64,000 nucleotides of DNA from an uncultured delta proteobacterium (GCA_963821845.1 CAWGFI010000013.1:1012-65011); one strand, 5' to 3'. Positions 1,765-17,512 are shown, numbered from the stretch's first letter. Notes: generated by a model not told the origin, from the letters alone. A program made the numbers and translations.

Positions 1765-2049
1765 ATGAGCAAGAGAAGACGATTTTCCGCGGAGTTCAAA
1801 GCCAAGGTAGCCCTTGACGCGCTGTCCGGAGAGATGACGCTTACCGAGCTGGCCAGCAAATACGGCGTGCATCCCAACATGATTTCAGCATGGAAACGTC
1901 AAGCCAGGGAAAGCATCGTAGAGTGTTTTAGCGGCAATGCGGCGGTCGGGAGGAACGACCAGGAAGCGGATATCAAGGATCTGCACGCGAAGATCGGTCA
2001 GTTGACCGTGGAGAATGATTTTTTGCAGAAGGCCTTCGCTCGTCGGTGA
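1765..2049 (+). CDS. IS3 transposase OrfA (HTH)
   Basis: 94 aa, 'RRFSAEFKAKVALDALSGEMTLTELASKYGVHPNMISAWKRQ', the classic IS3 OrfA helix-turn-helix plus leucine-zipper tail. Confidence 0.9.
   Translation: MSKRRRFSAEFKAKVALDALSGEMTLTELASKYGVHPNMISAWKRQARESIVECFSGNAAVGRNDQEADIKDLHAKIGQLTVENDFLQKAFARR
2019..2025 (+). promoter_or_regulatory. -1 programmed ribosomal frameshift heptamer T_TTT_TTG of the IS3 element
   Basis: In the orfA frame the codons read GAT TTT TTG. The -1 frame is open from 2022 into orfB. The X_XXY_YYZ pattern is typical of IS3 elements. Confidence 0.7.
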
Positions 2050-2933
2050 GTCGTGAGCGGAGGCGGCGGATGGTGGAGCAAGACCGTCCAAGGCTCAGTG
2101 TCACACGTCAATGCCTGCTCTTGGGTTTGAAGCGTTCCACGTATTACTATCAGCCCAAGGGCGAGAGCTTGTTCAACCTGCGCTTGCTGCGGCTGATCGA
2201 TGAGCAATTTCTGGAGACACCGTTTTATGGGACACGGCAAATGAAACGGCATCTGGTCAACGCAGGCTATGCGGTGGGGCGCCGCAGAGTCAAACGCCTC
2301 ATGAGAAAAATGGGGCTTATGGCCGTGTATCAGAAACCGAGAACAAGCGTACCCGGCGCAGAGCATACGGTTTATCCGTACCTTCTGCGAGGGGTCACGA
2401 TCGAGAAGCCCAATCAGGTCTGGTGCTCTGACATCACCTACCTGCCCATGAAGCGGGGCTTTCTCTACCTTGTTGCAGTTATGGACTGGTACAGCCGCGC
2501 GGTTCTGGCCTGGCGGCTCTCTAATACGATGGACGCCGATTTCTGTGCAGCCGCTCTGGAAGACGCGCTCAGTCGTTACGGAGCGCCGGAAATCTTCAAT
2601 ACGGATCAGGGGAGTCAGTTTACCAGCGCCCTGTTCACCGAAACACTCAAAGACGCCGGGGTACGGATTTCCATGGATGGAAAAGGCCGCTGGATGGACA
2701 ATATTTTTATTGAGCGCCTGTGGCGTTCGGTGAAATGCGAATGCGTCTACCTGCGTGAATTCGCGACCGGGACCCAGGCCAGAGAGGAACTCGACGCCTG
2801 GCTTAATTTTTACAACTGGAAGAGGCCGCATTCTATCTTTGACGGCAAACGGCCTATGGAAGTATATTGTGGTCATCGTCCAAGCACTGGGGGGCATGCC
2901 CCCCAGTGCTTGGAAAACCTCAAGGCGGCGTAA
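2046..2933 (+). CDS. IS3 transposase OrfB (DDE integrase core), probably made as an OrfAB fusion by -1 frameshifting
   Basis: 295 aa with 'WCSDITYLP', 'NTDQGSQFTS' and 'ERLWRSVKCE' rve-type motifs. It lies in the -1 frame relative to orfA and is open from the slippery site onward. Confidence 0.9.
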   Translation: MSRERRRRMVEQDRPRLSVTRQCLLLGLKRSTYYYQPKGESLFNLRLLRLIDEQFLETPFYGTRQMKRHLVNAGYAVGRRRVKRLMRKMGLMAVYQKPRTSVPGAEHTVYPYLLRGVTIEKPNQVWCSDITYLPMKRGFLYLVAVMDWYSRAVLAWRLSNTMDADFCAAALEDALSRYGAPEIFNTDQGSQFTSALFTETLKDAGVRISMDGKGRWMDNIFIERLWRSVKCECVYLREFATGTQAREELDAWLNFYNWKRPHSIFDGKRPMEVYCGHRPSTGGHAPQCLENLKAA

Positions 2934-2998: not shown

Positions 2999-3709
2999 AT
3001 ATACAAGCGACTAAACCTGCCCTGTTTCAATCCGCTCTTAAATTTCACGAAAGAAGAGATCATCGAAGTCATTACAAAGCGTTATGGCTTACCCCTGAAT
3101 CCAATATACGAGCATATGGACCGTACTTATTGTATTTGTTGTTATACGCTTGAAGCAAGGAACCAAGACTATGCGAGGGGACGCTTTCCGGAGATCCATG
3201 CGCGATATTACGGTCAAATTCGAAAGATGATTTTCGATAGTGGCCTCATCCAGAAATCTCACGAAGCTGACTGTTATAAGTCAGTGGATGAGAAGGTGAA
3301 TAGGAACGGCTTCATTCATTGGAAGAAATTGAGGAGTCAAGATTCCGTGGGCGCAATCAAAAGGCGTCTCCGCGGTGGCGGCCTCGTATACCACATCCGG
3401 AATGAGTCATGGATAGACACGAAACACCTCATCCCTGTGAAAGGGAAATGGCTCCGGCAGGGAAATGAGATCCGTTTCTGGAACATCCTAGAAAGAGTTG
3501 CAGACGTCTTGATCAAGCGGATGATCAACTGTCTTGACTGCGGACTTTGCACCATTGAGTGTTTTACTTGTCGGGTTTTTGACCGTAGTAGTAAAATACT
3601 CAGAATAGAAGGCTGCAGCCAGTGTGGCGAGTGCCTGAACCTCATGCGCTGTATCGGCTGGCACAATCGATTTTGGCGTCGGGTGATCGTGGAGGGAAGT
3701 AGTATATGA
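2999..3709 (+). pseudogene. PAPS-reductase-like protein C-terminal fragment with a C-terminal Cys-rich (4Fe-4S-like) domain; 5' part missing at the IS3 boundary
   Basis: The frame is open from 2999, upstream of the listed Met at 3116: 'CFNPLLNFTKEEIIEVITKRYGLPLNPIYEHMDRTYCICC', matching the PAPS reductase family C-terminal pattern. Later comes 'CLDCGLCTIECFTC...CSQCGECLNLMRC'. Confidence 0.5.
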
Positions 3710-4173
3710 CAAAGAGTCCCGGAGGAATTCAGATGACGCTTTATGGCCCCGGACAGTATTCCGGATTAGTTGAGCCCGCGCTCATCAGCGCCTGTTTCCT
3801 TGGCATTCCCTGCAGGTGGCATGGTAGGCGGGCAAAGAAACGGGACGGGCTCCTGGAACGACTGAAGAAACGATACATTCTTGTTCCCGTCTGCCCCGAG
3901 CAACTAGGGGGAATGCCAACGCCGCGGACGAGTGAATACCTCAACGGCACGGGGGCTCAGGTTTTGGATGAAGGACTGAAGATCATCGCCCCCGAAACAG
4001 GCGAGGATGTAACAGAATTTCACGTGAATGGGGCTAAATATACTCTCGAGATCGCTAAAATCGTGGGCGCCCGGCGCGCGTACCTCAAAGGCGGGAGTCC
4101 ATCGTGCGACAAAGACGGCGTATGCGGGGAGACGCTCAAACTCGCCGGCATAATCGTGACGCGTGTTCCGTGA
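3706..4173 (+). CDS. DUF523 family protein (TudS/YbbK-like 2-thiouracil desulfurase family)
   Basis: 'ISACFLGIPCRWHG...LVPVCPEQLGGMPTPR...GSPSCD', the conserved Cys pattern of DUF523. Confidence 0.7.
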   Translation: MTKSPGGIQMTLYGPGQYSGLVEPALISACFLGIPCRWHGRRAKKRDGLLERLKKRYILVPVCPEQLGGMPTPRTSEYLNGTGAQVLDEGLKIIAPETGEDVTEFHVNGAKYTLEIAKIVGARRAYLKGGSPSCDKDGVCGETLKLAGIIVTRVP

Positions 4174-4190
4174 AATCGGTGGGATGAATC

Positions 4191-4592
4191 ATGAACGAAG
4201 ATGTATTTGCGGAGAAGCTTGCGCAGTTCAAGCAAAACGAAAAACCGGAAGTGGTTCTCCTAATCGCTGACAACCAGGAACTCATTCGGATCACCGTAGC
4301 ATGGACAAATACCGCAGTTGCCAGGATGAAAAGGATAAGACAGCCGGGCGACCTCTCTGAGGCCGAATTCTGGGATTGGCTCTGGAAGCATGCGCAATAT
4401 TCCACGGAAGAGCTTCTCCTGAAAAGCTCTATCTCCAAATATGGATTCGAGTACAAAATACAGATGCTCATCGGTAACCGCGTCCTCTATCCGGATGGGA
4501 CGGTGAATACCTATGTTCAGCGCTACTTGCGTGAAAGGGTGCTCAAACTTTTTGAGGAAAAACCCAAAAGAAAGATGAGAAAGTCAGAATAG
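4191..4592 (+). CDS. hypothetical protein
   Basis: 133-aa ORF with normal composition. No family recognised. Confidence 0.45.
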   Translation: MNEDVFAEKLAQFKQNEKPEVVLLIADNQELIRITVAWTNTAVARMKRIRQPGDLSEAEFWDWLWKHAQYSTEELLLKSSISKYGFEYKIQMLIGNRVLYPDGTVNTYVQRYLRERVLKLFEEKPKRKMRKSE

Positions 4593-4661
4593 CATCCAAC
4601 TTTTCATCTGCAACGCCATCAAGCCTACCTTGATTCTCTTGCGAACACAAATTCGTGCAAC

Positions 4662-4699
4662 CAAATAAAAAAGGGCTACCCTATGACGGGGAACCCTTT
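4662..4699 (-). terminator. hairpin plus T-tract directly downstream of the displaced tRNA-Arg 3' fragment (probable native tRNA terminator)
   Basis: Minus strand reads AAAGGG-loop-CCCTTT followed by TTTTATTT. Confidence 0.5.
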
Positions 4700-4708
4700 G
4701 AATTCATT

Positions 4709-4755
4709 GTACGCCTGACAGGATTCGAACCTGTGGCCTGCGGATTAGAAGTCCG
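4709..4755. repeat. island attachment-site direct repeat (displaced 3' part of tRNA-Arg)
   Basis: The 47 nt GTACGCCTGACAGGATTCGAACCTGTGGCCTGCGGATTAGAAGTCCG are identical to 16057..16103 inside the intact tRNA-Arg gene. Confidence 0.9.
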
Positions 4756-4880
4756 TTAAAGGCATCCTATCGCTACTCACTTCAATTTACTTGATCCTAT
4801 TATATCAATATGTTATACAAAACAATCTTACTTCAACTCACCTTAAATATGTTTCTCAGGGTATCAATAGGGTAGCTAAG

Positions 4881-6053
4881 ATGGCCAACAAAAGACAGAA
4901 GGTAGCCAAGTTTCAGGGTGTCTATTTCCGTGAATCCGAATCAAGGACGTATAAGGGGAAGCCAGATCGCTGCTTTGACATCAGCTACAAAGACCAGAAT
5001 GGGAAAAAGATCTGGGAAAAGGTAGGTTGGCTATCTGAAGGCTATTCTGCTCAGTTTGCAGCAGGAATAAGAGCAAATCGTTTGCAGACCCTCAGGCATG
5101 GAGAGGAACTCCCCAAAAAACACGTACATGAGATTACCTTTGGAGAAGTATGGAAGAAGTATGATCAATGGCTTCAATCCAATCACAAACAACCCAGAGA
5201 TGATCGAGGACGCTATCACAAACATCTGGAACCACGATTTGCCAACAAGCCTCTTTCCAAGATAACCCCTTTCGATTTAGAGAGGTTAAAAAGCGATCTC
5301 AAGAAGTCTGACCTTGCCGATGCGACCGTGAAGCATGTCATAGTTGTGGTCAGACAAATGTTCAACAAGGCGATTGCTTGGGGGCTTTGGAGTGGGGATA
5401 ATCCAGTCAAGAAAGTAAAGATCCCTCAATTACAGAACCGAAGAGAACGCTTCCTAACCTACGAGGAAGCGACAACACTGCTTGATGAGATGGGCAAATC
5501 GAGCGAGCAACTTCGAGATATGGCTAGTTTGAGCCTCTATACCGGCTTGAGGGCTGGCGAGATATTCGCCTTGAGGTGGAGCCACATAGACCTTGAAAAC
5601 GATCTGATACACGTAGCCGATCCGAAGGGTGGATCTGCACGTAAGGCTTTTATCGTTCCCCAAATCAAAGAGATTTTCAAACGCCAGGAAAAGCCATCCA
5701 ATCCTGAGCAGTTTGTGTTCCTGTCCAGAAAAGGGGAACAGATTGTGGAAGTAAGCAATGCTTTCGGTCGAGTGGTGAATAGACTTGGACTGAATGACGG
5801 CTTTGATGATAGACGTCAGAAGGTTACTTTCCATACCCTGCGCCATACGTTCGCATCTTGGCTTGCGCTGCGCGGAACTCCTATCTTCACCATCAAAGAG
5901 CTTATGGGCCATCACACTTTAGTCATGACAGAGCGTTACGCCCATCTCCTCCCAGATCACAAACGTGAAGCTGCAAACGCCCTTGCAAAAGAGATAGAGG
6001 AAAAGCTTTCATCAGCAGAGAATGGCTCTTCAGATCAAGCAAACATCTCCTAG
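4881..6053 (+). CDS. tyrosine recombinase / phage-type integrase
   Basis: 'GLRAGEIFALRWSHIDL', 'HTLRHTFASWLALRG' and 'LMGHHTLVMTERYAHL' catalytic-domain motifs. It lies immediately inside the att repeat. The ATG at 4881 is preferred over the TTG at 4791. Confidence 0.9.
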   Translation: MANKRQKVAKFQGVYFRESESRTYKGKPDRCFDISYKDQNGKKIWEKVGWLSEGYSAQFAAGIRANRLQTLRHGEELPKKHVHEITFGEVWKKYDQWLQSNHKQPRDDRGRYHKHLEPRFANKPLSKITPFDLERLKSDLKKSDLADATVKHVIVVVRQMFNKAIAWGLWSGDNPVKKVKIPQLQNRRERFLTYEEATTLLDEMGKSSEQLRDMASLSLYTGLRAGEIFALRWSHIDLENDLIHVADPKGGSARKAFIVPQIKEIFKRQEKPSNPEQFVFLSRKGEQIVEVSNAFGRVVNRLGLNDGFDDRRQKVTFHTLRHTFASWLALRGTPIFTIKELMGHHTLVMTERYAHLLPDHKREAANALAKEIEEKLSSAENGSSDQANIS

Positions 6054-6087
6054 TATGCCTACCTATATGTACCCATCTTGTAACTGA

Positions 6088-6129
6088 GGGTGCCCCCACC
6101 AGTTGACCACAGGGGTACCACCCTGGGGG
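6088..6129 (+). other. GC-stem hairpin with AGTTGACCAC loop (copy 1 of a pair flanking the RT/PolA-like genes)
   Basis: GGGTGCCCCCACCAGTTGACCACAGGGGTACCACCCTGGGGG. CCCC/GGGG and GGGTG/CACCC can pair, or CCCCCA/TGGGGG. Confidence 0.4.
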
Positions 6130-6529
6130 ATATTGTTTATATAACAACTTTTGTGTATAAAACGTAAAAAGAGCTTGCTCCAACTTTAGTCTTTCTACTA
6201 TATTGAGATCGTGTAGAGGCAAGAGAAAATCACAAGCATAGTCTTGATTTGTGAATTGATCCGAACACTTAAGAATCCCTTAGGTATGCTTGATCATGAC
6301 GAAATCCATAATGCACCCATGGTTAAATACATACATTCTGTCCTTAACCAGAGAGCATCAGCCCAGACGGATGATGTGGTGATAAAGTATATAGATGCAA
6401 TATGTTGCCGTTTTAATGGGAGCGTCTTATAGTTGTCTATATAGCCAATAGCAAATAGAGCCCCATTTTATGCAGATACATCTAATTATTGTTGGACATC
6501 ATCAATCAAGTATGAGGTGAAACAGGACG

Positions 6530-8167
6530 ATGGAAGTAGATGTGGGGGGGATCACGACCGACATGCGGCAGGTTGTCCGCCAACTGAAACATGACCTAAA
6601 AGACGACTGGTATCCAGATACCTTAGGTTATGAAGATTCTCTTGAAGCTGAATTGATATCGGCGGCAATCACTGAATCTCTTGAGTCAAATGATGGTCTG
6701 TTTGTTCCCGGCAACCGGGCAGAGCTAAATATTCCCAAGAAGGGATTTGTTCTCCGCTATTCCTTAGAAACGAGTCTCCTCGATCGTGCTTACTACCATG
6801 CTCTTGTTTCCGAGCTTGTGCCATTCTACGATACACTCCTCCCTCCCGTTGTTCTGGGTCACAGATACGCTTCCAATGGCCACCGAGCGGGGCGATATCT
6901 GTTTCTTCACCCCATAGAGCAATGGAAGCTATTCAGAGGATACATTGCTCAGGAGGCCGAAAGGCAGCCTGTGGTCCTTGTTGCCGATATTCAAAACTAT
7001 TTTGAGAATATTAGGATAGACATGCTGTTGGAGTTGCTACGGCAGCGGGTATCGCAGTTGAATACCAGTGGTTCGACAAAGGCTCGGATCAGAACCATCG
7101 TTAACCTTTTGGAACGGTGTCTTAATACTTGGTGTTTTTGCTGTACGCACGGACTACCACAAAACCGAGATGCTTCTTCGTTCCTAGGCAATATCGTCAT
7201 GCTCAGCGTTGACGAAGAAATGATGCGGCGAGGTTATTCCTACTTTAGGTATATGGATGATATTCAAATCGTCACCTCATCTAAATACAAAGCAAGGGCC
7301 GCTCTACAAGATCTTATAGTCGAACTCCGGAAAATTGGCCTCAACGTAAACGCCGGAAAGACCGACATACTTGAACCGGGTAATCCGAAGTATGAAGAGA
7401 TCCTGTCTTTGGGTGACCTAGAACTCGAACAAATAGACAATATGTGGCGCTCCCGGTCACTCCCTGTGATCCGGCGTTCCTTTGAGCCTCTGCGGAGACT
7501 TGCTAGCAAGTTAATCCAAGAGAATAGGACTCAAGAGAGGGCTTTCCGCTTTTGCGTAAAAAGGTTTGAAAACCTGGCTCTTTGTGCTGACATCGATATC
7601 CCTTCGAGCTATTTTGAACCGATGATAGAAGCAGCAATTGCTGAATTAGATGCCCAACCATACAGCACTGACCAGCTCGTTCGGTTCTTGAAAGCGGCAC
7701 CAACTAAGGCAGCTGATATCGCTAGAGTTGCAGACCTATTGCGGGATCAGGAACGTGCAATTTATGATTGGCAGAATTATCTCCTTTGGCAGTTGCTTGT
7801 CTACAAAGAATACTATGACGCTGACCTAATCGTACTTGCCCGAAAACGGATTCGGGAGTCATCTCTGCAGGCAGATAGAGCCGGTGCAATTCTTTATTTA
7901 GGTGCCGTTGGCGCTGCAGAAGATCGCGCAACTGTAGCTGAGTGTTTTTCGGATTGTACAAACCACCTACTTCAGCGCAATGCTTTAATCGCCGTTCATG
8001 AATTAGATTTTAGCCACGGAATCAAGCAACATGTAGCTCCACATGTCTTGCCCTGTCTGAAAGGCACATATAGAAGGATTCGTGATCGTTTTCCAGGATG
8101 TTACCACAGGCCACTACCATCAGTGTCTTACCTTGACATCTATGACGAGGTAACTTCCTATGGGTAA
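6530..8167 (+). CDS. reverse transcriptase with helical-repeat C-terminal domain (Abi/UG/DRT-like architecture)
   Basis: RT motifs 'VLVADIQNYFENI' (A), 'GLPQNRDASSFLGNIVMLSVD' (B), 'FRYMDDIQIV' (C, YxDD) and 'GLNVNAGKTDIL' (E). About 250 aa of alpha-helical HEAT-like repeat follow ('ADRAGAILYLGAVGAAEDRATV...LLQRNALIAVHEL'). GAGGTG SD 10 nt upstream. Confidence 0.85.
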   Translation: MEVDVGGITTDMRQVVRQLKHDLKDDWYPDTLGYEDSLEAELISAAITESLESNDGLFVPGNRAELNIPKKGFVLRYSLETSLLDRAYYHALVSELVPFYDTLLPPVVLGHRYASNGHRAGRYLFLHPIEQWKLFRGYIAQEAERQPVVLVADIQNYFENIRIDMLLELLRQRVSQLNTSGSTKARIRTIVNLLERCLNTWCFCCTHGLPQNRDASSFLGNIVMLSVDEEMMRRGYSYFRYMDDIQIVTSSKYKARAALQDLIVELRKIGLNVNAGKTDILEPGNPKYEEILSLGDLELEQIDNMWRSRSLPVIRRSFEPLRRLASKLIQENRTQERAFRFCVKRFENLALCADIDIPSSYFEPMIEAAIAELDAQPYSTDQLVRFLKAAPTKAADIARVADLLRDQERAIYDWQNYLLWQLLVYKEYYDADLIVLARKRIRESSLQADRAGAILYLGAVGAAEDRATVAECFSDCTNHLLQRNALIAVHELDFSHGIKQHVAPHVLPCLKGTYRRIRDRFPGCYHRPLPSVSYLDIYDEVTSYG

Positions 8168-9167
8168 GCAATTCCCTGAGTGGTATCTATTTCACAATAC
8201 CCCACCTGTCGAAGTTGGTTCTAAGCCCGTACTCATTCTGAGATCTCCTCTAGGTGAGAACCGCCAAGTGGAGTTAGCTGATATCGCAGGATTCGAGGCG
8301 CCATTGGTGACGCATTCCTTTGCATGGCTCGTTGATTGGTTTCGAAACTCATCTCTTCCACTTCCCGTTACTGTGATTGAGCTTGAGTTGGCCAAGAAGC
8401 TCATTGTTGGTCGCCCTAAGTCTGAATTTAAAACAGGAAATCGGCCATGGGAGATCTCAGAAATATTGGCCCCGTATCTCCCTGGCAAATATGATCAACC
8501 AAAACTAAAGCATGCACTTTCCACTCATCTATCTCGACCTTCGACAGGAGAATTTAGCAATCTAGAGTGGATGGAAGCCGTTACAGGTCTTCTTCCAAAG
8601 GCTTGGGAAGAACTGAAAAACGATTTGCATACGATTGGGGAAGCAAAGCGGTTCTTTTCAATTGAAGTTCCGGTCTTTAATATAATGTTACGTTCACAAC
8701 TTGAAGGCATAAGAGTTGACCACGATAACCGTGACAAGTTATTGCAAATAGTTGATCGTGAATATATAGCCGCCCATCATTCACTATCCATAACTTGCAA
8801 TATAAAGGTTGCAAAGGCATTGAATGATACAAAATATTTACTAAATTGCCTTGGTATACGTAACATTGAAGAACTAAAAAAATATTTACCAGAAGAAATT
8901 ATTAGGGAATTTAAGACTACACATCCAATATGTTCATCACTCAATACTATTCTATCATCAAAGCGTAATAAAGGAATATTACTCAGGACTTTTTCTTTAG
9001 GTTCAGAATTTTGCTATCCTATTTTTGATGTACTTGGGACAGTGACAGGGCGTATACTAGCCGTAGATCCACAATTGCAGTATCTCAAGAAAGAGTATAG
9101 ATCTTTGTTAATACCAAGGGATGGCAGCATCCACCTAATGTCGATTATTCACAGTTTGAGCCCATGA
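8160..9167 (+). CDS. family-A DNA polymerase-like protein, N-terminal part (thumb/fingers start); reading frame breaks just before motif A
   Basis: ATG overlaps the RT stop (ATGGGTAA). 'EVPVFNIMLRSQLEGIRVD' and 'GTVTGRILAVDPQLQYLKKEYRSLLIPRDG' match the PolA 'E.PL..VL..ME..GI.VD' and 'TGRLSS.DPNLQNIP....IR.AF' patterns. Confidence 0.75.
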   Translation: MGKQFPEWYLFHNTPPVEVGSKPVLILRSPLGENRQVELADIAGFEAPLVTHSFAWLVDWFRNSSLPLPVTVIELELAKKLIVGRPKSEFKTGNRPWEISEILAPYLPGKYDQPKLKHALSTHLSRPSTGEFSNLEWMEAVTGLLPKAWEELKNDLHTIGEAKRFFSIEVPVFNIMLRSQLEGIRVDHDNRDKLLQIVDREYIAAHHSLSITCNIKVAKALNDTKYLLNCLGIRNIEELKKYLPEEIIREFKTTHPICSSLNTILSSKRNKGILLRTFSLGSEFCYPIFDVLGTVTGRILAVDPQLQYLKKEYRSLLIPRDGSIHLMSIIHSLSP

Positions 9168-9820
9168 TTATGGCTAGCTTATCTTGTGAGCCTACTCTTC
9201 TAGAACTCTGTTGTAAAGGAGATCTATACGCCGAATTGGCTTCTCGAATTTTTGGAGAAACCCGCGCTCGTGATGATGCAAAAACTCTCTTTCTGGCATA
9301 TTCATACGGCATGGGGAAAAACGGCCTAGCAAGGTTAGCATCAAGGGTTACGGGCGACCCTACTGATGTTTCACGGCTTCTTGATGAGCATTTCTTCAAT
9401 ATGTTTTCCAATGTCGAGCAATGGAAAGGTAGCCTCTATGCGGTATTAGCAAATAGTGGTCGAATCGGGACATTACTCGGCAACCATCGAAACCGATCTA
9501 AAAAGGGTCCACTAGATGCATGTGAAAGGAGATGGGCAGTGAGTCAGGTTGTCCAAGGAACTGGGGCCTTAATCCTTAAAAGGGTTATCCAAAATCTAGC
9601 TCAGCTAACCCCAGAAGCCCGGGTGCTCTTACCAATGCACGATGCTCTGCTTATCGAAATGCCGTCATTGGAAAGAGAGAAACTAACGCATGAAATAGTT
9701 GCTACACTCACTGACACATTCGTTCAAGCATGTCCAGGCACCAAGCCCGCTTTCTCACTCGAACCTTTTAGTGGAAAGCGTAGGAGTACACCAAAAACAG
9801 CATCAACCGGACGCCAATAA
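9164..9820 (+). CDS. family-A DNA polymerase-like protein, C-terminal part (palm motifs A, B, C), -1 frame relative to 8160..9167
   Basis: The frame is open from 9101. It reads 'VDYSQFEPMIMASLS' (motif A, DYSQIELR-like), 'RDDAKTLFLAYSYGMG' (motif B), 'QVVQGTGALILK' and 'LPMHDALLIE' (motif C). Confidence 0.8.
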   Translation: MIMASLSCEPTLLELCCKGDLYAELASRIFGETRARDDAKTLFLAYSYGMGKNGLARLASRVTGDPTDVSRLLDEHFFNMFSNVEQWKGSLYAVLANSGRIGTLLGNHRNRSKKGPLDACERRWAVSQVVQGTGALILKRVIQNLAQLTPEARVLLPMHDALLIEMPSLEREKLTHEIVATLTDTFVQACPGTKPAFSLEPFSGKRRSTPKTASTGRQ

Positions 9821-10278
9821 AGCCTGCCGCCCCGGTTCTGCTGGCGTTCCAGAATAATTATCCTATCTATGACTTCTAACTGGCTCTCAAATTTCAACAA
9901 TATCTTATGTATGGTCTACCTTATCAAAGGCATACCACGCCGCTATCAATCCTTACGAAACAGTAGCCTCTAAAACAAGCCATTGCCTCTCTAGATTCTC
10001 ATTTATCAAGATAGCGGACAGAAGGATATTCATTGCTTCACAACCCAACTCTACTACCGTTATCACGTCCTAGAATCGACGATCTCCCTTTCGTCCATAG
10101 TCAGACATGCATTGTTTGAAACAAACCGAATTTGTGTCTATTTTGGGCAGTTGAGTTAGATTGCAAGCAATATGTATAATTAATACAATAGCTTACTGAA
10201 TAAATTCAGGCATGCTTGATCGGCTTTGACAAGGTGATTCGTCTGAAGTGCCGCAGGACATTATCGCTCAGTATCAAG

Positions 10279-10310
10279 CCCCCCCTACAAGTGACCACTA
10301 GAGGTGGGGG
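10279..10310 (+). other. GC-stem hairpin with AAGTGACCAC loop (copy 2)
   Basis: CCCCCCC-TACAAGTGACCACTAGA-GGTGGGGG. The loop is similar to the 6088..6129 hairpin. Confidence 0.4.
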
Positions 10311-10498
10311 TAGGAGGTGTATCCGTAACCCTCTAGTATTTTGTGGGGGAAATTAGAACAGATAACGGTAGCAGTACGGTAGACAAAGCAGTTATGGATG
10401 ATAAGTGTTTAGTAAAATATGAAAATGAGTCCAGAACAGCCAAAAACCTGTTAACTATATGTGCCAAGCGCTATTACCACCAGACATTAGAGGCAACG

Positions 10499-11860
10499 AT
10501 GATGGAAAAAATAATGTATTCACAGACCAAGTGTATAATTATGACAATCGTCACGTTTGTATCGGTCATGCTATTTGGTATATCTGCGCCCGCTGCCGCC
10601 GGTACGCAATCCTGGTGGAAACAAATCGAACAGGGGAAACAGATATATGACCAAGCCTTGGATAAGATCAGCCTGTCACGAAAAGGTCAGGACGATCAAC
10701 AGAAGGAGCCGACCTCGCCCGATCCCGGAGACGCCTCCATTACAGAGGAGCAGGTTAGAGAAAGCGCTGTTGGCGTCCAAGATGGCCACTTCGATATAGA
10801 GGGCGTTTATCTAGGCATGACCGGGGAACAGATCACAAGCGTATTGCAAAAGATAGGCTACACCTCCTCCAATGATTCTATGCCTGAAAGCAAACGCAAG
10901 GCGTTATTGAATGCGAAAGGCGTTCTTCCACCGCCGCAAGGATTCCAGAAAGGGCCGATGAGAAAGCCCGGAAGTAGTTCGATTTCAATACGGTACTTAA
11001 GGATGGTAGGGGGAGGCATACCGCAGGAGAATCTACCCGCTGGAGATGTCACGATGATCGTGTTTTATATGCCTCACGCCGGAGTACATGAAGAGATATA
11101 TCAGAGATTTACAGAAAAATATGGTGAACCGGACTACTGTCGATCTCACCCGGACCAACCTCACCAAGACTGTACATGGACGAATGGCGCTGGAGAGACG
11201 CTTCAGTTACAAAGCAGACATTTCAAATGGTCATATATAAACCTGGGTTATGTATCACCACGCTCCCACGGTCGCTCTAACAACGACAACGTTGCGGTGC
11301 AAACGACAGCTCGCTCCACGTCAGCGCGGAACGCCTCAAAGTCAGACAGTGGCATGGTCGCAAACCCTGAAAGCAAGCTGAATAAGGAGGAGACAGGGCG
11401 ACAAGAGGGTCTGACGCTTGAGGGAGTGTCTCTGGGAATGCATCGTGAACAAGTCAGAGAAGTTCTGACGAACGCGGGATACACGGAATTACAGCCATTA
11501 GCGGCCGCCCATTTTCAACGACGAGATCCGGGGGCCATGAAGCCGTCTAATGTCAGTGTCAAATATGGAGGCATTGGGGGAAAAGACTTTGACCGTGTAC
11601 GGGTGGTTAGCTACCTGCTCCAGCGGCCTTCGGTGGATTGGGAGCAGAGACGCCAAGAACTCACTGCTTTATTCGGACCTCCGGATTCCTGCGCGGGTCC
11701 GGAAGCGGCGCGAACGATCGGCGAAATGAAAATGCCCATACCCGTGAAGACTGCGCCGACCTGTGTTTGGACACGGAGCCAGGATGGGCAAACACAAAAG
11801 CTGCAAGTCACTATGCTTATAACGAGCGATGCATTTGTACTGCAATATGAAGTGCAGTAG
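10499..11860 (+). CDS. secreted hypothetical protein with an internally duplicated domain
   Basis: Signal-peptide-like 'MYSQTKCIIMTIVTFVSVMLFGISAPAAAG'. There are two related modules ('EGVYLGMTGEQITSVLQKIGYTSS...CTWTNGAGETLQLQ' and 'EGVSLGMHREQVREVLTNAGYTEL...CVWTRSQDGQTQKLQ'). The upstream GTG extension to 10343 is judged unlikely. Confidence 0.6.
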   Translation: MMEKIMYSQTKCIIMTIVTFVSVMLFGISAPAAAGTQSWWKQIEQGKQIYDQALDKISLSRKGQDDQQKEPTSPDPGDASITEEQVRESAVGVQDGHFDIEGVYLGMTGEQITSVLQKIGYTSSNDSMPESKRKALLNAKGVLPPPQGFQKGPMRKPGSSSISIRYLRMVGGGIPQENLPAGDVTMIVFYMPHAGVHEEIYQRFTEKYGEPDYCRSHPDQPHQDCTWTNGAGETLQLQSRHFKWSYINLGYVSPRSHGRSNNDNVAVQTTARSTSARNASKSDSGMVANPESKLNKEETGRQEGLTLEGVSLGMHREQVREVLTNAGYTELQPLAAAHFQRRDPGAMKPSNVSVKYGGIGGKDFDRVRVVSYLLQRPSVDWEQRRQELTALFGPPDSCAGPEAARTIGEMKMPIPVKTAPTCVWTRSQDGQTQKLQVTMLITSDAFVLQYEVQ

Positions 11861-12025
11861 GACAAGAAGGCGTTTTTTCCGATCTTGACGAAGCGGTATA
11901 TCTCAAGAGCGAACTCAAGACGAGCTCTTTATTTGACAATGGAGTGGAAGCAGAACAGTATTTTGTACCATCTTTTTACCAGCTTATTTTTACGCTTAAT
12001 GATATCAGATACTTAAATAGGAACT

Positions 12026-12051
12026 TACGGGTTCAAACCCCGCCTTCGTCA
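12026..12051 (+). other. tRNA-like 3' fragment (T-arm plus acceptor strand), possible relic attachment site
   Basis: ACGGGTTCAAACCCCGCCTTCGTCA resembles T-stem/TTCAAAC loop/T-stem plus a 7-nt acceptor strand plus discriminator. No 5' half is present. Confidence 0.3.
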
Positions 12052-12467
12052 TATGAAGTCTAAAAAACTTCTCAGCATGCTACGACTGAATTAATTCCTT
12101 TATACTAGATCCCAAAAAAGCTGGCATCTGGTTGACAAAAACAACCACCTTGGCTAAAATAGATGTGTTTTCAATTAGTTATAGTGATATCCATACTGTC
12201 TAATACACCTCTTCTTTTAGCTTGAGTAGTCTCACTTCCATTTGGGTAAGTAGTTGATATATATAACAATAATGTATATCTGCCATACCAATAATCGGCA
12301 TTGGTTGTTTCTATAAAAAAGAGGCTGTAATGACAAGCCATGAAGTATACCAATCTGACGATTTTACGGATACCCTTGAAGAATAGTGATGGGAGGTCAT
12401 GCTAAATGATACTCCCACCACCTTTTGTATTTGTTACCCAGTAACCAATGTTACCGAATGTAGACCA

Positions 12468-14573
12468 TTACGCTTGGCTGAAATAATCCCATAACACTTC
12501 AACTCTTTCTTCAATAATTGGTATCTGATCGAGATCTATGGTAACATCGGTATCATCGGTAACAATATCCTCTAAAGGCAATGCTATCAAGGCTTTACGT
12601 TCGTTACCGCTATATTCTGATCCGGTAACGTCGGTAACATCTTGGTCAGTTAAATCTGATGAGGGGGTTGTTACCGTTGGTACCATTGTCTCTAATGGTA
12701 CTATGTTACCCTTGTTACCACTCTTTATAGTATATTTTCCTCTCTCTGACCGTATTATTGTTCCATCATCAGCCAGCTTCTTAAGGAGCTTTCTAATTGC
12801 ATTTTCATTTTTACCAAGCAAATCAGCAATCTCCTTAGATGTAAGTGTATCTCCAGAATCTTCCAAGACTTCAACTATCTCTATCCGTTCTTTGCTCATT
12901 GTGTATTTCTGAGCAGAACCCAAAAGAGTCCATGTCGTCATGTCTTTATCAAAGCTTAAGGCAAGCTCATTTTCTTCGACATCACGACCTGTTATGGTTA
13001 AGACTGCATCAGCCTGATTTCTTCCCCTATTCAATATAAGGATGGCATCGGCAGCGCCTGTTAGTCCTGTTGTACCTGAGACTTGATCAAGAGGATCTTC
13101 TGAACCAGATTTGCGTAAATGATGCACCACTAATAGAGCAGTACCATATTCATCAGCAAAGTTTTTCAGTTTTTCTATTGCGTTATAATCATTTGCATAA
13201 CTCAGCTTTGAATTGGTCTGCGATTCTCTTATTTTTTGCAAGGTATCAATAATGATGAGTGTCACCTCAGGATGCTTACTCTTGAATTCTTTGAGCTTTT
13301 CAATTCCTCCTGTTCCAACTTTTGGCCATTGAGTGTACAGGTACAGATTATCCGGCGCTTCAGCATCCCTGAGGATAGATTTCAGTCTATACTTTAGACG
13401 CTTATGCGTATCTTCCAATGAAATGTAGAGTACACTTTCTTGCTTTACATCTATCTCGCCCAAGGCTTTCTCTCCTTTAGCGATTGATAGCGCCAGGTTC
13501 AATGAAAGCCAGCTCTTGCCGATCTTTGGTTTGCCACAAAGAAGCGTTAAACCCTCTGGAATTATTCCCCTTACTGCCCAAACAGGTTCAGGGAAATCCA
13601 TTTTGACAAGTTCTGACGCACTATAACCGGTTGGACTTTTGTTTCCCGTGACATGTTGTTTTTTGGAAACACTTTTTGTCAGAGGGGTAGGGTTAGGTTC
13701 ATAATTCCAAGCCTGATCCAATTTTCTAAGAGCCTCTTCTTCAGGAAAAGGTGGAATGCAAGCATGCGCAGCTTGCAGAATGAATAACTTGGCCATGTCG
13801 TAAAGTGCATTAGTGCCTCGAAGGCTGCATGCGAACCGATAAAGAGTGTCGTCTCTTTGCCCTTCGGGTATCCCAAGAGGAACTTTAGAAAAGTCCCATG
13901 TGCCATCAACTTGTTTATCCTCTCCGCCTGCCGATTCGTTTGCCAAGATCGCTGCTAGACTATGAGGGATCGGAGCTATGCTCAGATTCGAGGGTGATTT
14001 CAGTATCTCCCATTCATACTGCTTTCCACTTACATGAATGCTTGGAGGTGCCACCACGTAACCGCCTTCTGAGCGAATATCCAAACCAGGCATAAAGCCA
14101 ACTTTGTTGCCTACTGCTGATTGGTCTGGTGAAAAAAACAAATGCATTCCACCACCCCCAGTCAGTGAGGTCACTGTTTCAAAAGAGCGTGTATCATCTC
14201 CGACAAGCTCATCATATGATTCCAAACCACCTGATTTTGAATCTACATCTAAGACGATGATGCCCGATTTTAAACCCGTGGCTATACCTACATTGGCCGT
14301 GGGCCATTTCCGCCACCATGCATGGATCTTATCCAGATCTTTGCTGGCGCTTTTTACCCCGTCAGGGATTAAGTCAACGTCATACCGAGGATGTTTACCA
14401 GGGCTTTTACAATCTGGTTTTCCACAAGAGCATTTTCCATCCTCTATTGTATGAAGTGGTAAAACTGACCAACCTCCACTTGCGTAGTCGAGAGCTGATT
14501 TAAACAACTGATTACGTGATGCATCAAAGCCATAATCGCTAAGATGCACCATTCCAATTTTGCTTTCTTCCAT
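12468..14573 (-). CDS. bifunctional primase-polymerase (PrimPol) / RepA-like AAA ATPase replication protein with C-terminal wHTH
   Basis: N-terminus 'GWSVLPLH...CSCGKPDCKSPGKHP...VGIATGLKSGIIVLDVD' (Prim-Pol). Walker A 'LLCGKPKIGKSWL'. 'LLVVHHLRK' RecA-like core. Confidence 0.85.
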   Translation of the reverse strand: MEESKIGMVHLSDYGFDASRNQLFKSALDYASGGWSVLPLHTIEDGKCSCGKPDCKSPGKHPRYDVDLIPDGVKSASKDLDKIHAWWRKWPTANVGIATGLKSGIIVLDVDSKSGGLESYDELVGDDTRSFETVTSLTGGGGMHLFFSPDQSAVGNKVGFMPGLDIRSEGGYVVAPPSIHVSGKQYEWEILKSPSNLSIAPIPHSLAAILANESAGGEDKQVDGTWDFSKVPLGIPEGQRDDTLYRFACSLRGTNALYDMAKLFILQAAHACIPPFPEEEALRKLDQAWNYEPNPTPLTKSVSKKQHVTGNKSPTGYSASELVKMDFPEPVWAVRGIIPEGLTLLCGKPKIGKSWLSLNLALSIAKGEKALGEIDVKQESVLYISLEDTHKRLKYRLKSILRDAEAPDNLYLYTQWPKVGTGGIEKLKEFKSKHPEVTLIIIDTLQKIRESQTNSKLSYANDYNAIEKLKNFADEYGTALLVVHHLRKSGSEDPLDQVSGTTGLTGAADAILILNRGRNQADAVLTITGRDVEENELALSFDKDMTTWTLLGSAQKYTMSKERIEIVEVLEDSGDTLTSKEIADLLGKNENAIRKLLKKLADDGTIIRSERGKYTIKSGNKGNIVPLETMVPTVTTPSSDLTDQDVTDVTGSEYSGNERKALIALPLEDIVTDDTDVTIDLDQIPIIEERVEVLWDYFSQA

Positions 14574-14594
14574 TACTATCTGGGTATCCTTTAT

Positions 14595-14888
14595 TTAAGC
14601 TGTTAAAGTTAATACTTTATGTTGTTCCATAAAGCTGATGATATCATCTAGTGCGTATCGTACCGATCTGCCAATCTTTATGAAGGGAAAGCCCCTTCTT
14701 GCTGACCGATCATTTCGAAGTGTTGGGACAGCACGTCCCGTGAGTTCCGCTACCTCGTTTTCATTGAGGTATTTCCGTTGAATCATAAAACCCAATTTCC
14801 TTTCAGAGAATGATAGGCGACCTTCATCGCCTTTGATTTTGGGGTTAATAATGTTGTGAACCATGAACGAGTCATCAATCCACGCCAA
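14595..14888 (-). CDS. AlpA/excisionase-type HTH DNA-binding protein
   Basis: 'LNENEVAELTGRAVPTLRNDRSARRGFPFIKIGRSVRYALDDIISFM'. The start is uncertain: TTG at 14888, or ATG at 14864 or 14786. Confidence 0.7.
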   Translation of the reverse strand: MAWIDDSFMVHNIINPKIKGDEGRLSFSERKLGFMIQRKYLNENEVAELTGRAVPTLRNDRSARRGFPFIKIGRSVRYALDDIISFMEQHKVLTLTA

Positions 14889-15147
14889 CTAATCACCATC
14901 ATTGTATTGAATAATCTCAGACCTCCTTTCTCGAAGTTTCGGTTGCGCTTGTGAGCTTTTCCAGTCTCTCTACCCGCCTTTGGCGGTGAGGCTCTGAAAG
15001 GACCGTCTCACGGCATGAGGTAGTGCATGAGTCATACCAAAATTAACAAAATGTTAATTATAATGGCTAAGTAGTTTATATTATGAGATTAATTAAGCGA
15101 TGCAAAATAACCAAACGTAAAATTCGGCAGTCATAATGAGTATATTA

Positions 15148-15163
15148 GTACAACAAATTGTAC
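15148..15163. promoter_or_regulatory. palindromic operator candidate GTACAA-N4-TTGTAC (copy 1)
   Basis: GTACAACAAATTGTAC in the divergent excisionase/repressor intergenic region. Confidence 0.45.
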
Positions 15164-15236
15164 CAAAGCCTTGATATACTAAATTGTATAGTAGGTGATA
15201 CAATTAACTTATTAATTTAATTGAATAAAATATGAG

Positions 15237-15252
15237 TACAAAAAATTGTACT
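15237..15252. promoter_or_regulatory. palindromic operator candidate GTACAA-N4-TTGTAC (copy 2)
   Basis: GTACAAAAAATTGTAC. Half-site-like AAATTGTA motifs also occur at about 15181, 15297 and 15438. Confidence 0.45.
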
Positions 15253-15399
15253 TGCTTTAGGAGGTTGAGCGCTAAACGCTTATCAGAGCTGAGAATAAAA
15301 TTTGTACTCTGGTTCAGTGGGGTGGGAGGGTGCTAAAATGTAAACGTATTCAGCTGCTTGTATTTAATTCTGCTGAGGGCTACATGGTTGCATAGGTTA

Positions 15400-15428
15400 T
15401 TGACAACCTAATTAATATATTGTAAAGT
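15400..15428 (+). promoter_or_regulatory. sigma-70-type promoter candidate for the CI-like repressor gene
   Basis: TTGACA (15400..15405), a 17-nt spacer, then TAAAGT (15423..15428). An AAATTGT half-site lies just downstream. Confidence 0.35.
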
Positions 15429-15460
15429 GTAAATAACAAATTGTTAGCGGAGGCTTAAGC

Positions 15461-15877
15461 ATGTCATATAGTAAAGGTCGTATGGGTAAGAGCATGGATA
15501 AAGACGTTGTGGAGGACATCATCAAGCGTATGATGAAAACGCTGAATGTGGATACTCAGCAGCAGCTTGCCGACTATTTAGGACGTGAGAGCGCTGGCAT
15601 TACTCAATGGAAAACGAGAGGCAAGATACCGCTCACTGTTCTCAGCGACTTTTCGAAATCACAGAAAGTCTCTATTGATTGGCTCATGACAGGTGTGCAT
15701 GTCTTTCCTGAAGGCAAGCCTAACCTCTTGACCGATTCGGATCTGGAGTATTTCCCTGCCGCTGTGGAAGTTGTCAAGGCTATCAAGATGAAGAACTATC
15801 CTCTGCTCAAAAAGATTTTGGAGTATGCGTTAGGTGAAGTGGATAGACTGATGGAAGAGCAAAGGCAATCTAAATAA
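15461..15877 (+). CDS. phage CI-repressor-type HTH protein
   Basis: 'TQQQLADYLGRESAGITQWKTRGKIPLTVLSDFSKSQKVSIDWLMTG' matches the bacteriophage CI repressor N-terminal HTH pattern. GGAGG SD upstream. Confidence 0.75.
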   Translation: MSYSKGRMGKSMDKDVVEDIIKRMMKTLNVDTQQQLADYLGRESAGITQWKTRGKIPLTVLSDFSKSQKVSIDWLMTGVHVFPEGKPNLLTDSDLEYFPAAVEVVKAIKMKNYPLLKKILEYALGEVDRLMEEQRQSK

Positions 15878-16010
15878 CCACATCAGGCAAGTCCATTGGG
15901 ATTCCTTTTACCGCTTTGTGGTGGACTTGGAGTTCGAGGGCAAAGGTAGCTGCACGTCCTTCCAAATCAGTGGGAAAATTGCAATCAGGGTAGCTATAGG
16001 GTAGCGAAGC

Positions 16011-16046
16011 TAAAAAGGGGCCACAGCCTTATCGCTGTAACCCCTT
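16011..16046 (-). terminator. hairpin plus T-tract downstream of tRNA-Arg (element-borne terminator)
   Basis: Minus strand reads AAGGGG-loop-CCCCTTTTTAGC, directly after the tRNA 3' end. Confidence 0.5.
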
Positions 16047-16054
16047 GATTTTAT

Positions 16055-16131
16055 TGGTACGCCTGACAGGATTCGAACCTGTGGCCTGCGGATTAGAAGT
16101 CCGCTGCTCTATCCAGCTGAGCTACAGGCGC
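16055..16131 (-). tRNA. tRNA-Arg (anticodon TCT), CCA encoded
   Basis: The reverse complement folds as GCGCCTG/TA/GCTC-AGCTGGATA-GAGC/A/GCGGA-CTTCTAA-TCCGC/AGGCC/ACAGG-TTCGAAT-CCTGT/CAGGCGT/A/CCA. Its 3' 47 nt (16057..16103) are the island direct repeat. Confidence 0.95.
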
Positions 16132-16213
16132 GTGGTGTTACCTTTTAGCAGACTCCTTGCGTCCGATCAAGGCCATGTGAGGGCGCCCAAGCGCCTCCCG
16201 TTGGTCCCGAGGT

Positions 16214-17512
16214 TCACGATTCCCCGAACACGCGCTTGAAGATGGTGTCCACGTGTTTGAGGTGGTAGTTCAGGTCGAAGATTTGCCGGATCTCTTCCAC
16301 CGAGAGCCACGCAGTCAGATCGGGATCGGCGTTCACCAGATCCTGGAACGTTCCCTGTCCCTCCCATACGCGCATGGCCTGTTTCTGCACCATCTGGTAG
16401 GCGTCCTCACGGGAGGCGCCCTTGCGGGTCAGTTCCAGCAGAATCTGCTGGGAGAAAATCAACCCCTTGGTCAGCTCCAGGTTGCGCTTCATGTTTTCGG
16501 GGTAGACGATGAGCTGATCCACGATTTTCATGAGACGGTTGAGCATGTAGTTGAGCAGCGTCGTGCTGTCGGGGGCGATGACGCGTTCCACCGAGGAATG
16601 GCTGATGTCGCGTTCATGCCACAGGGCCACGTTTTCCAGGGCGGCCACGGCGTTTGATCGCACCAGCCGGGCCAGGCCGGTGATATTTTCGGACCCGATG
16701 GGGTTACGCTTGTGCGGCATGGCGGACGAGCCTTTCTGGCCCTTGGAGAAATATTCCTCCGCCTCCAGTACTTCGGTGCGCTGCAAGTGCCGGATTTCCA
16801 CAGTGATTTTTTCCATGGTGGCGGCGGTTATGGCCAGCGCGGTAAAGTATTCGGCGTAGCGGTCCCGCTGGATAACCTGGCTGGAAGCCGGGGCCGGTTT
16901 GAGCCCGGCCTTGCGGCACACGTAGTCTTCCACTTCGGGCGGAATATTGGCGAAGGTCCCCACCGCGCCGGAAATGGCCCCGTAGGCGATGCCCTCCCGC
17001 GCGTTTTTGACTCGCGTCAGGTTGCGCTTCATCTCGTCATACCAGACGGCCAGCTTGATTCCGAAGGTGATGGGTTCGGCGTGAATGCCGTGCGAGCGGC
17101 CGATCATGACGGTGTTCTTGTGTTCCAGGGCCCGGCGCTTGATGATTTCCATGAATCGTTCGATATCGCCGATGATGATGTCCGCGGCCTTCTTCATCAG
17201 GATGGCCATGGAGGTGTCCAGAATGTCCGATGATGTCAGCCCCTGATGGATGAATCGGGCCTCGGGCCCCACGTGTTCGGCCACATTGGTCAGAAAGGCA
17301 ATCACGTCGTGTTTGGTCACCAGTTCGATTTCGTCCACGCGGTCGGCGTCGACGGCGGCCTTGGCCCTTATTACTTCGACGGCTTCCCCGGGGATCAGGC
17401 CCTGTTCGGCCATGGCCTCGCAGGCCCAGATTTCCACGTCCAGCCAGGTTTGATATTTGGTCTGCTGACTCCACAGTTCAGCCATTTCGGGTCGGGTATA
17501 GCGCGCTATCAT
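16214..17512 (-). CDS. purB: adenylosuccinate lyase
   Basis: 'MIARYTRPEMAELW...', 'GSSAMPHKRNP' fumarate-lyase signature, about 432 aa. The upstream extension to 17575 was rejected. Confidence 0.9.
   Translation of the reverse strand: MIARYTRPEMAELWSQQTKYQTWLDVEIWACEAMAEQGLIPGEAVEVIRAKAAVDADRVDEIELVTKHDVIAFLTNVAEHVGPEARFIHQGLTSSDILDTSMAILMKKAADIIIGDIERFMEIIKRRALEHKNTVMIGRSHGIHAEPITFGIKLAVWYDEMKRNLTRVKNAREGIAYGAISGAVGTFANIPPEVEDYVCRKAGLKPAPASSQVIQRDRYAEYFTALAITAATMEKITVEIRHLQRTEVLEAEEYFSKGQKGSSAMPHKRNPIGSENITGLARLVRSNAVAALENVALWHERDISHSSVERVIAPDSTTLLNYMLNRLMKIVDQLIVYPENMKRNLELTKGLIFSQQILLELTRKGASREDAYQMVQKQAMRVWEGQGTFQDLVNADPDLTAWLSVEEIRQIFDLNYHLKHVDTIFKRVFGES

Follow-up and report, generated by a model that had tools for sequence, protein, structure and literature searches.

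The window analysed here is a 64,000-nucleotide stretch of DNA from an uncultured delta proteobacterium (GCA_963821845.1 CAWGFI010000013.1:1012-65011). Between positions 6530 and 9820 it encodes, on the + strand, a reverse transcriptase (RT) followed by a DNA polymerase of family A (PolA), the latter spread over two open reading frames (ORFs). The locus is a two-gene UG9-small module of the DRT (defence-associated RT) type, a kind that has been catalogued as a candidate anti-phage system. Overall, we regard it as an ordinary and probably defective member of UG9. A preliminary description of the window had named the right type of system, and the second-strand synthesis that it suggested is plausible, but it had missed a frame break in the polymerase gene that takes motif A out of both ORFs.

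A UG9 reverse transcriptase and its polymerase partner

The RT gene (6530..8167, + strand) encodes a protein of 545 aa with an RT domain and a C-terminal alpha-helical repeat domain. It matches Pfam RVT_1 above cutoff (E 1.5e-14). Among the UG/Abi groups represented in PADLOC, the UG9 profile is the best fit over the full length of the protein, RT_UG9_small scoring 612.7 bits (E 1.6e-184) from residue 2 to 544 on a 541-position profile. The runner-up profiles, UG9_large and UG32, reach 313.8 and 195 bits. NCBIfam holds no UG9-specific model, and all of its matches to the RT fall under cutoff. YMDD occupies residues 241-244 and, like D153, K277 and the penultimate Y544, is invariant across 35 homologues. 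An AF2 model of the protein (pLDDT 92.4) is all-helical from about residue 286 to 520, where a fused HEAT-like repeat domain is the hallmark of Class 1, and its best Foldseek matches are DRT4/UG15, DRT6, Abi-P2 and AbiK (about 550 columns, E 2e-10 to 1e-7). The protein is a Class 1 UG/Abi reverse transcriptase of the UG9 small variant. Its architecture is likewise that of the small variant: there is no extra N-terminal domain, and the gene upstream is the integrase of a genomic island, not an MBL-fold hydrolase. Both the 545-aa RT with YMDD and an alpha-helical C-terminus and its assignment to the UG/Abi/DRT defence type, as first described, are thus upheld by the ORF, the RVT_1 match, the homologue alignment, the UG9 profile and the structural model with its matches. 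Sequence similarity to the solved Class 1 structures is restricted to the palm, and a priming tyrosine is therefore not mapped residue by residue onto Tyr125 of DRT4.

Downstream lies the PolA-like gene, in two pieces. The 5' piece (8160..9167, + strand, 335 aa) contains a reduced exonuclease-like N-domain, the thumb and the start of the fingers, and matches the PADLOC profile for RT-associated PolA, RTasPolA, at 8e-45 over profile positions 22-283 of 475. The 3' piece (9164..9820, + strand, 218 aa) bears motif B of the fingers (R..AK..FLAYSYG) and motif C of the palm (LLPMHDA). It matches RTasPolA at 1.1e-51 over positions 298-474 of 475 and Pfam DNA_pol_A at 1.6e-19 (70.6 bits, cutoff 34.3); full-length homologues carry PF00476. 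The polymerase had been described as a single gene of about 550 aa, which does not hold, as the two ORFs lie in different frames. The signature strings quoted for it fared unevenly: TGRILAVDPQLQYL, RDDAKTLFLAYSYGMG and PMHDA are present, while 'VDYSQFEPMIMASLS' is readable only by joining the frames.

Alignment of the PolA family shows what an intact partner would bring. Near-invariant positions comprise Tyr, Asp and Phe-Glu-Pro in motif A (Y.DYSQFEP), R, K, L and G in the O-helix motif B (R-x3-K-x3-L-x3-Y-G), and LLPMHDA in motif C. The residues that bind dNTP, the Glu of the steric gate and the two Asp that bind metal are all retained. Judged by these residues, the family looks catalytically competent. 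Two positions depart from the usual. Motif C reads HDA and not the canonical HDE across the entire RT-associated family, with Ala throughout at the position of the second motif-C carboxylate (Klenow E883), and in motif B a Leu stands at the position equivalent to Klenow F762. In the first ~145 aa of the family alignment no acidic residue reaches 90% conservation. Neither piece has a Pfam match to a 5'-nuclease or 5'-3' exonuclease domain, and the intact protein is only about 540 aa long.

The fold was modelled on P0004, a homologue 74% identical to the window PolA, in place of the window protein itself. The AF2 model (pLDDT 88.8, pTM 0.89) superposes on the Bst Pol I large fragment (2xo7_A; E 2.1e-20, TMq 0.76, 578 columns) as a Klenow-like right hand, and also on the polymerase domains of Pol theta. 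The overall fold is the same as in Bst LF, Klenow and Pol theta (TMq 0.72-0.76). All have motif A, motif B and motif C's His-Asp in common, and Bst LF and Pol theta likewise carry an exonuclease-like N-domain without its active-site residues. RT-associated PolA differs from these enzymes in being only 15-21% identical to them, in its N-domain of ~145 aa, in HDA, in the Leu at the F762 equivalent, in having no 5'-nuclease and in always being coupled to an RT. The evidence is consistent with a Klenow-like family-A enzyme whose reduced N-domain is inactive as an exonuclease. A stand-alone family-A polymerase without 5'-nuclease or exonuclease motifs, as first proposed, is confirmed by Pfam, the family alignment and the P0004 fold, and the DNA_pol_A score and the Bst LF match together support the family-A fold from the profile and the structural side.

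Translational coupling links the two genes. The stop of the RT and the start of PolA share the 8 nt ATGGGTAA (8160..8167, + strand, read from the sequence), the overlap that had been noted before. At the RT C-terminus (window 8155-8167) the TAT codon of Tyr544 provides the 'AT' of the PolA ATG, and a Shine-Dalgarno-like GAGG lies about 10 nt upstream. The junction has the form tATGnnTRR in 8/8 sequences compared, the window included; these are seven independent sequences, as two of the loci (L009 and L010) carry one and the same gene pair. The form encodes the invariant Tyr, one further residue and a stop, overlapping the PolA ATG. Gene coordinates give an 8-nt overlap in L011 and L013 too, and the stop/start overlap is present in 9/9 small or intermediate variants. 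Because codons for H, N or D would equally keep the ATG, Tyr544 itself appears to be selected, and this invariant penultimate tyrosine is a candidate for the priming residue of the RT. In L012, a UG9-large locus, the RT stop and the PolA start abut and lack the 8-nt overlap of the small variant.

The pairing itself is conserved well beyond the window. The RT lies directly upstream of PolA in 10/10 other loci (L001, L002, L006, L007, L008, L009/L010, L011, L012 and L013), across which PolA is 28–74% identical to the window PolA. The closest representative genome is a Desulfuromonadaceae metagenome-assembled genome, at 68% RT identity. An intact PolA comes after the RT in L001 (68% RT identity; PolA of 539 aa) and in L002 (38%; PolA of 533 aa), and L009/L010 (79%) have the same RT–PolA order. 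In L006, L007, L008, L011 and L013, which were reached from PolA homologues of 28–45% identity, a protein with RVT_1 stands upstream of PolA. Manual comparison of the RT and PolA hit tables paired up 33 RT/PolA matches whose longest contigs have identical lengths. No third conserved gene is common to the ten loci. Megablast found no match for the locus among E. coli genomes, so E. coli is not the host. L012 (2513-7632) has the UG9-large arrangement of an MBL-fold hydrolase, an 813-aa RT and PolA.

This distribution bears on whether the two genes are neighbours by chance, or whether the pair is simply the replication module of an integrative island or satellite. The pair does sit on a mobile island beside replication genes, as such a module would. 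The surroundings elsewhere are nevertheless unrelated: housekeeping genes in L007 and L008, a conjugative element in L011, the vicinity of Cas1 in L013, and, in L001 and L009, defence islands next to GmrSD, a type I methylase or a type ISP enzyme. Chance adjacency is rejected by the same order and adjacency in 10/10 other loci. A role as the replication module of the island is rejected by these unrelated contexts and by the island's own Prim-Pol/helicase. We give this pair of explanations a negligible probability, and the synteny of the PolA gene with RT homologues elsewhere is established.

The pairing had been put forward as new. It is not, because UG9, the group to which the RT belongs, already has the polymerase in its described gene set. 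Kojima & Kanehisa 2008 reported the pair as family (lineage) D; Simon & Zimmerly 2008 (PMC2602772) equated UG9 with that lineage and cited the 2008 study for RT lineages flanked by DNA polymerase A; Mestre et al. 2022 (PMC9226505) described UG9 with PolA; and PADLOC has the RTasPolA profile. UG9 counts 79 members, of which 60 are small and 19 belong to the large variant, in which the RT bears an N-terminal trypsin-like protease and an MBL hydrolase is encoded upstream (Mestre et al. 2022, PMC9226505). A defence role for UG9 was predicted from enrichment in defence islands, without experimental validation (Mestre et al. 2022, PMC9226505). In the literature searched we found no experimental study of any UG9/PolA system. 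Because the pairing was published in 2008 and has been covered by PADLOC since 2022–2023, standard defence annotation should label the locus. The window module shares with UG9 small DRTs the full-length profile matches, the gene order, the 8-nt overlap, the RT with alpha-repeat architecture, the stand-alone PolA of ~540 aa and the context of a mobile element or defence island. The sole difference is that the window PolA is split by a 1-nt deletion, so that neither ORF translates motif A.

The frame break in the polymerase gene

One nucleotide is missing within 9120..9142 (+ strand), between 'PRDG' and 'VDY' and just before motif A. The 5' piece is collinear with intact homologues as far as '...PRDGSIHL' and then ends in the out-of-frame MSIIHSLSP*. 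At this site P0004, the nearest homologue, reads PRDGRSHLYVDYAQFEP, whereas the window reads PRDGSIHL and then leaves the frame. When the 120 nt surrounding motif A are aligned as DNA with nine intact homologous sequences, the window proves to lack exactly one nucleotide relative to 9/9 of them. An added T, giving CTA TAT GTC, restores the family consensus L-Y-x-D-Y; the frame-restoring change is CTAATGTC -> CTATATGTC. Motif A, VDYSQFEP (9140..9163, + strand), with its catalytic Asp, shares its frame with the 3' piece, yet that piece has its first start only at 9164, downstream of the motif, and the 5' piece reads through it out of frame. Motif A is thus still encoded in the window, out of frame in both ORFs, next to the HDA of motif C and the Phe -> Leu of motif B that are family-wide. 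Because the catalytic Asp of motif A is in neither ORF product, the polymerase is dead as written, and this copy is inactive, provided that the deletion did not arise in the assembly.

The lesion could in principle be a feature of the gene and not damage. A programmed -1 ribosomal frameshift would make full-length PolA at a controlled ratio. A shift of -1 is the common direction for programmed events, and the stop of the first ORF overlaps the ATG of the second (ATGA at 9164-9167). Direct reading of the overlap (9101-9140) finds no X XXY YYZ slippery heptamer and no homopolymer run, and 9/9 homologues in the alignment of this site have an unbroken frame, typical PolA matches being ~500-563 aa long. 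With no heptamer or homopolymer and all homologues single-frame, programmed frameshifting is very unlikely and we reject it.

Because the 218 downstream codons are still open and well conserved, either the gene was inactivated by a recent mutation or the assembly is wrong here. The codons are 69% identical to the nearest homologue, compared with 76% upstream, which means that a real break would have to be very recent. An error of assembly or sequencing in a gene that is really intact is a possibility we take seriously while leaning against it. The contig belongs to a draft assembly (82,365 bp), and its proteins have singleton status in the collection. However, the break site is not a homopolymer; six other window genes that we sampled give full-length Pfam matches, which speaks weakly against indel errors throughout the assembly; and decayed copies do occur in the family, such as the Dyella protein P0116 with its scrambled C-terminus. 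This copy is a case of a defence module that may be in decay, carried by a small integrative element.

In P0116 (Dyella sp., L008 6001-7509) the C-terminal ~60 residues are unrelated to the family ('FGRCHRRGRVVARRR...') and lack the PMHDA of motif C. This homologue appears to be another PolA that was frameshifted independently, a hint that such modules decay fairly often.

Possible roles of the two polymerases

Those Class 1 UG/Abi RTs that have been studied synthesise DNA in the absence of a nucleic-acid template, usually priming on a tyrosine of their own, as in AbiK, DRT4 (Tyr125) and DRT3b (Y666). Class 2 DRTs (DRT2, DRT3a, DRT9, DRT10) use non-coding RNA (ncRNA) templates. By analogy, the UG9 RT would start on its own tyrosine and make single-stranded DNA (ssDNA) without a nucleic-acid template, like AbiK, DRT4, DRT1, DRT3b and the RT domain of DRT7. 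The PolA-like enzyme would then copy the RT-made strand into duplex or fold-back DNA. Host nucleases would normally hold this product down, and a phage factor might let it accumulate, leading to abortive infection. Taken as a whole, the explanation we favour, with moderate confidence, is that of a UG9-small module in which the RT produces untemplated ssDNA and PolA the second strand, the copy in the window being broken by the 1-nt deletion.

Two characterised systems offer precedents. In DRT7/UG10 the RT makes protein-primed poly(dT), and a fused primase-polymerase copies the complementary strand. DRT7 resembles UG9 in that its Class 1 UG/Abi RT is accompanied by another polymerase activity that is templated by DNA, and it is the experimental precedent for a handoff in which protein-primed ssDNA is copied to duplex. 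It differs in that the second polymerase is an archaeo-eukaryotic-type PrimPol in the same polypeptide and not a separate family-A enzyme, and PolA cannot prime de novo. Nor is there a UG10 model among the 25 best of the 90 PADLOC matches of the window RT. In DRT3 (UG3, UG8 and an ncRNA) two RTs jointly make double-stranded DNA (dsDNA), normally restrained by RecBCD. Here the likeness is that of a two-polymerase immune system with dsDNA as the combined output and a Class 1 protein-primed untemplated RT, DRT3b/UG8, as one component; the difference is that the second polymerase is another RT using an ncRNA template, and that the downstream ncRNA is conserved in DRT3, while none was detected at the UG9 loci compared. 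DRT4 (UG15), DRT6, AbiK and Abi-P2 are the closest solved folds to the window RT and share its RT and helical repeat domain. Unlike UG9, they act alone, make ssDNA only and have no PolA partner, and their sequence similarity to the window RT lies only in the palm.

The preliminary description had instead the RT copying a specific RNA into cDNA, which PolA would convert to dsDNA. The textbook path has these two steps, first an RT and then a DNA-dependent polymerase, and the Class 2 DRTs named above do use ncRNA templates. UG9, however, belongs to Class 1, whose studied enzymes are untemplated, and the RT fold is nearest DRT4, DRT6, Abi-P2 and AbiK, not the ncRNA-using DRT9 or DRT2. Searches around the genes also failed to turn up a template. 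At permissive thresholds Rfam found only a tRNA and a tRNA fragment, with no intron RNA or other family flanking the genes. Upstream regions aligned with relatives at 68–79% RT identity show nothing conserved beyond the ribosome-binding site, and the aligned downstream regions of six loci contain no conserved block. In some homologues there is little flanking room either, with 158 nt in L008 and about 120 nt upstream in L001 if an unannotated 120-aa ORF there is real. An RNA-copying route is quite unlikely on these grounds. The second-strand half of the original proposal survives as the best current inference, and its RNA-templated cDNA is probably wrong.

The same searches speak to the other known retroelement types, and the earlier statement that the locus is not a retron, group II intron or diversity-generating retroelement (DGR) stands. 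A retron was rejected for want of an Rfam match and a conserved upstream block, and because the retron RT profile is far weaker on this protein than the UG9 profile. A group II intron was rejected as well: Rfam found no intron RNA family, and group_II_RT_mat reaches 69 bits, its cutoff being 300, on the RT palm only. Apart from the att repeat of the island, direct repeats in 3500-16400 comprise only matches of <=31 nt, consistent with chance, so there is no template/variable repeat pair and a DGR was likewise rejected.

PolA might alternatively be the effector. The RT or its DNA adduct would sense infection and release or activate PolA against phage or host DNA, possibly through aberrant strand-displacement synthesis, dNTP depletion or replication-fork blocking. 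In many Class 1 systems the partner is indeed an effector (nitrilase, protease/MBL pair, SLATT, HEPN), and the unusual HDA of motif C and the lost exonuclease residues fit a non-housekeeping role. Against this, both characterised two-polymerase DRTs, DRT7 and DRT3, use the second polymerase to copy the product of the first, and the PolA family retains the full template-dependent polymerase core. UG9-large adds a separate nuclease-protease effector pair yet keeps PolA, which suggests that PolA belongs to the synthesis core. We consider PolA as effector unlikely, if somewhat less so than copying of a specific RNA.

Several points weigh against untemplated synthesis followed by second-strand copying. 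The product, the priming residue and the part played by PolA in UG9 are all drawn by analogy from other systems. The primer for the second strand is unaccounted for; either the RT product, by folding back, or a host factor would have to supply it. The family-wide HDA of motif C implies that catalysis by PolA may be altered or weak. Few loci entered the non-coding comparison, so that a short or poorly conserved RNA could be missed. Lastly, PolA cannot be made intact from the window, and this locus may do nothing, whatever the family does.

A bolder extension of the untemplated-synthesis proposal is that UG9–PolA constitutes a third, independently evolved two-polymerase immune system. The RT would prime on Y544, whose codon is locked into the PolA start, and make untemplated or protein-templated ssDNA. 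The strand would pass directly to the exonuclease-less family-A polymerase with its HDA active site, which would yield protein-linked duplex DNA as a toxic or signalling product. We put these three steps forward jointly and only tentatively. UG9 is one of the few two-polymerase DRT types for which we found no published mechanism in the literature searched, a gap that is notable now that DRT7 and DRT3 show that an untemplated RT and a second polymerase yield duplex DNA. Targets for mutation are the HDA of motif C, the exonuclease residues that were lost, the penultimate Tyr with its invariance and the fixed overlap of 8 nt, and intact relatives (e.g. L001, L007 or L013) are better suited for testing than the broken copy of the window.

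The integrative island and its surroundings

The RT–PolA pair is cargo of a tRNA-Arg integrative island, as had been described. The integration target is a tRNA-Arg(tct) gene (16055..16131, - strand; ARAGORN; Rfam tRNA 74.3 bits), of which 16055-16103 forms the proximal att repeat. The distal att repeat, at the left end of the island (4707..4755), is a copy of the tRNA-Arg 3' half and gives a weak Rfam tRNA match at 4710-4773. The two copies of this 49-nt direct repeat (4707-4755 = 16055-16103) lie 11,348 bp apart and delimit an 11.3-kb element. GC content is 0.38-0.51 inside the island and 0.53-0.60 over the 8 kb profiled beyond the tRNA. Next to the left end, a tyrosine integrase is encoded at 4791..6053 (+ strand; Pfam Phage_integrase 1.8e-30; phrog_1 integrase 4.6e-75). 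The att repeat, the shift in GC and the integrase together support the assignment to the island.

The island has a replication module of its own, since it encodes a replication protein (12468..14573, - strand) with a Prim-Pol domain (Pfam, 6.7e-42), an AAA_25/DnaB-like helicase (Pfam AAA_25, 2.1e-31) and a C-terminal HTH, matching PHROG DNA polymerase/primase families. This HTH resembles the DNA-binding domains of AbiEi, CasR and Csa3 (E ~1e-6 to 1e-4), and its fusion to a primase-helicase is unusual. A small HTH/excisionase-like ORF and a CI-like repressor are further genes of the island.

Between PolA and the primase-helicase lies an ORF of 505 aa (10343-11860, + strand). It has no Pfam, PADLOC, NCBIfam or PHROG match and no counterpart beside RT–PolA elsewhere. 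By eye, its product has a signal-peptide-like hydrophobic stretch and the similar internal segments 'LEGVYLGMTGEQITSVLQKIGYT' and 'LEGVSLGMHREQVREVLTNAGYT'.

Similarity between the att sites runs about 28 nt past the tRNA 3' end (4679-4706 compared with 16027-16054), at 82% over the 77-nt repeat family. Because it continues past the end of the tRNA, element and chromosome share sequence downstream of the tRNA, which may have been left by an earlier integration or a related one. Some 1.8 kb beyond the left att site of the island, outside it, a 295-aa rve-family transposase (2046..2933, + strand) overlaps a preceding 94-aa ORF (1765..2049) by 4 nt, and the two recall IS3-type orfA/orfB.

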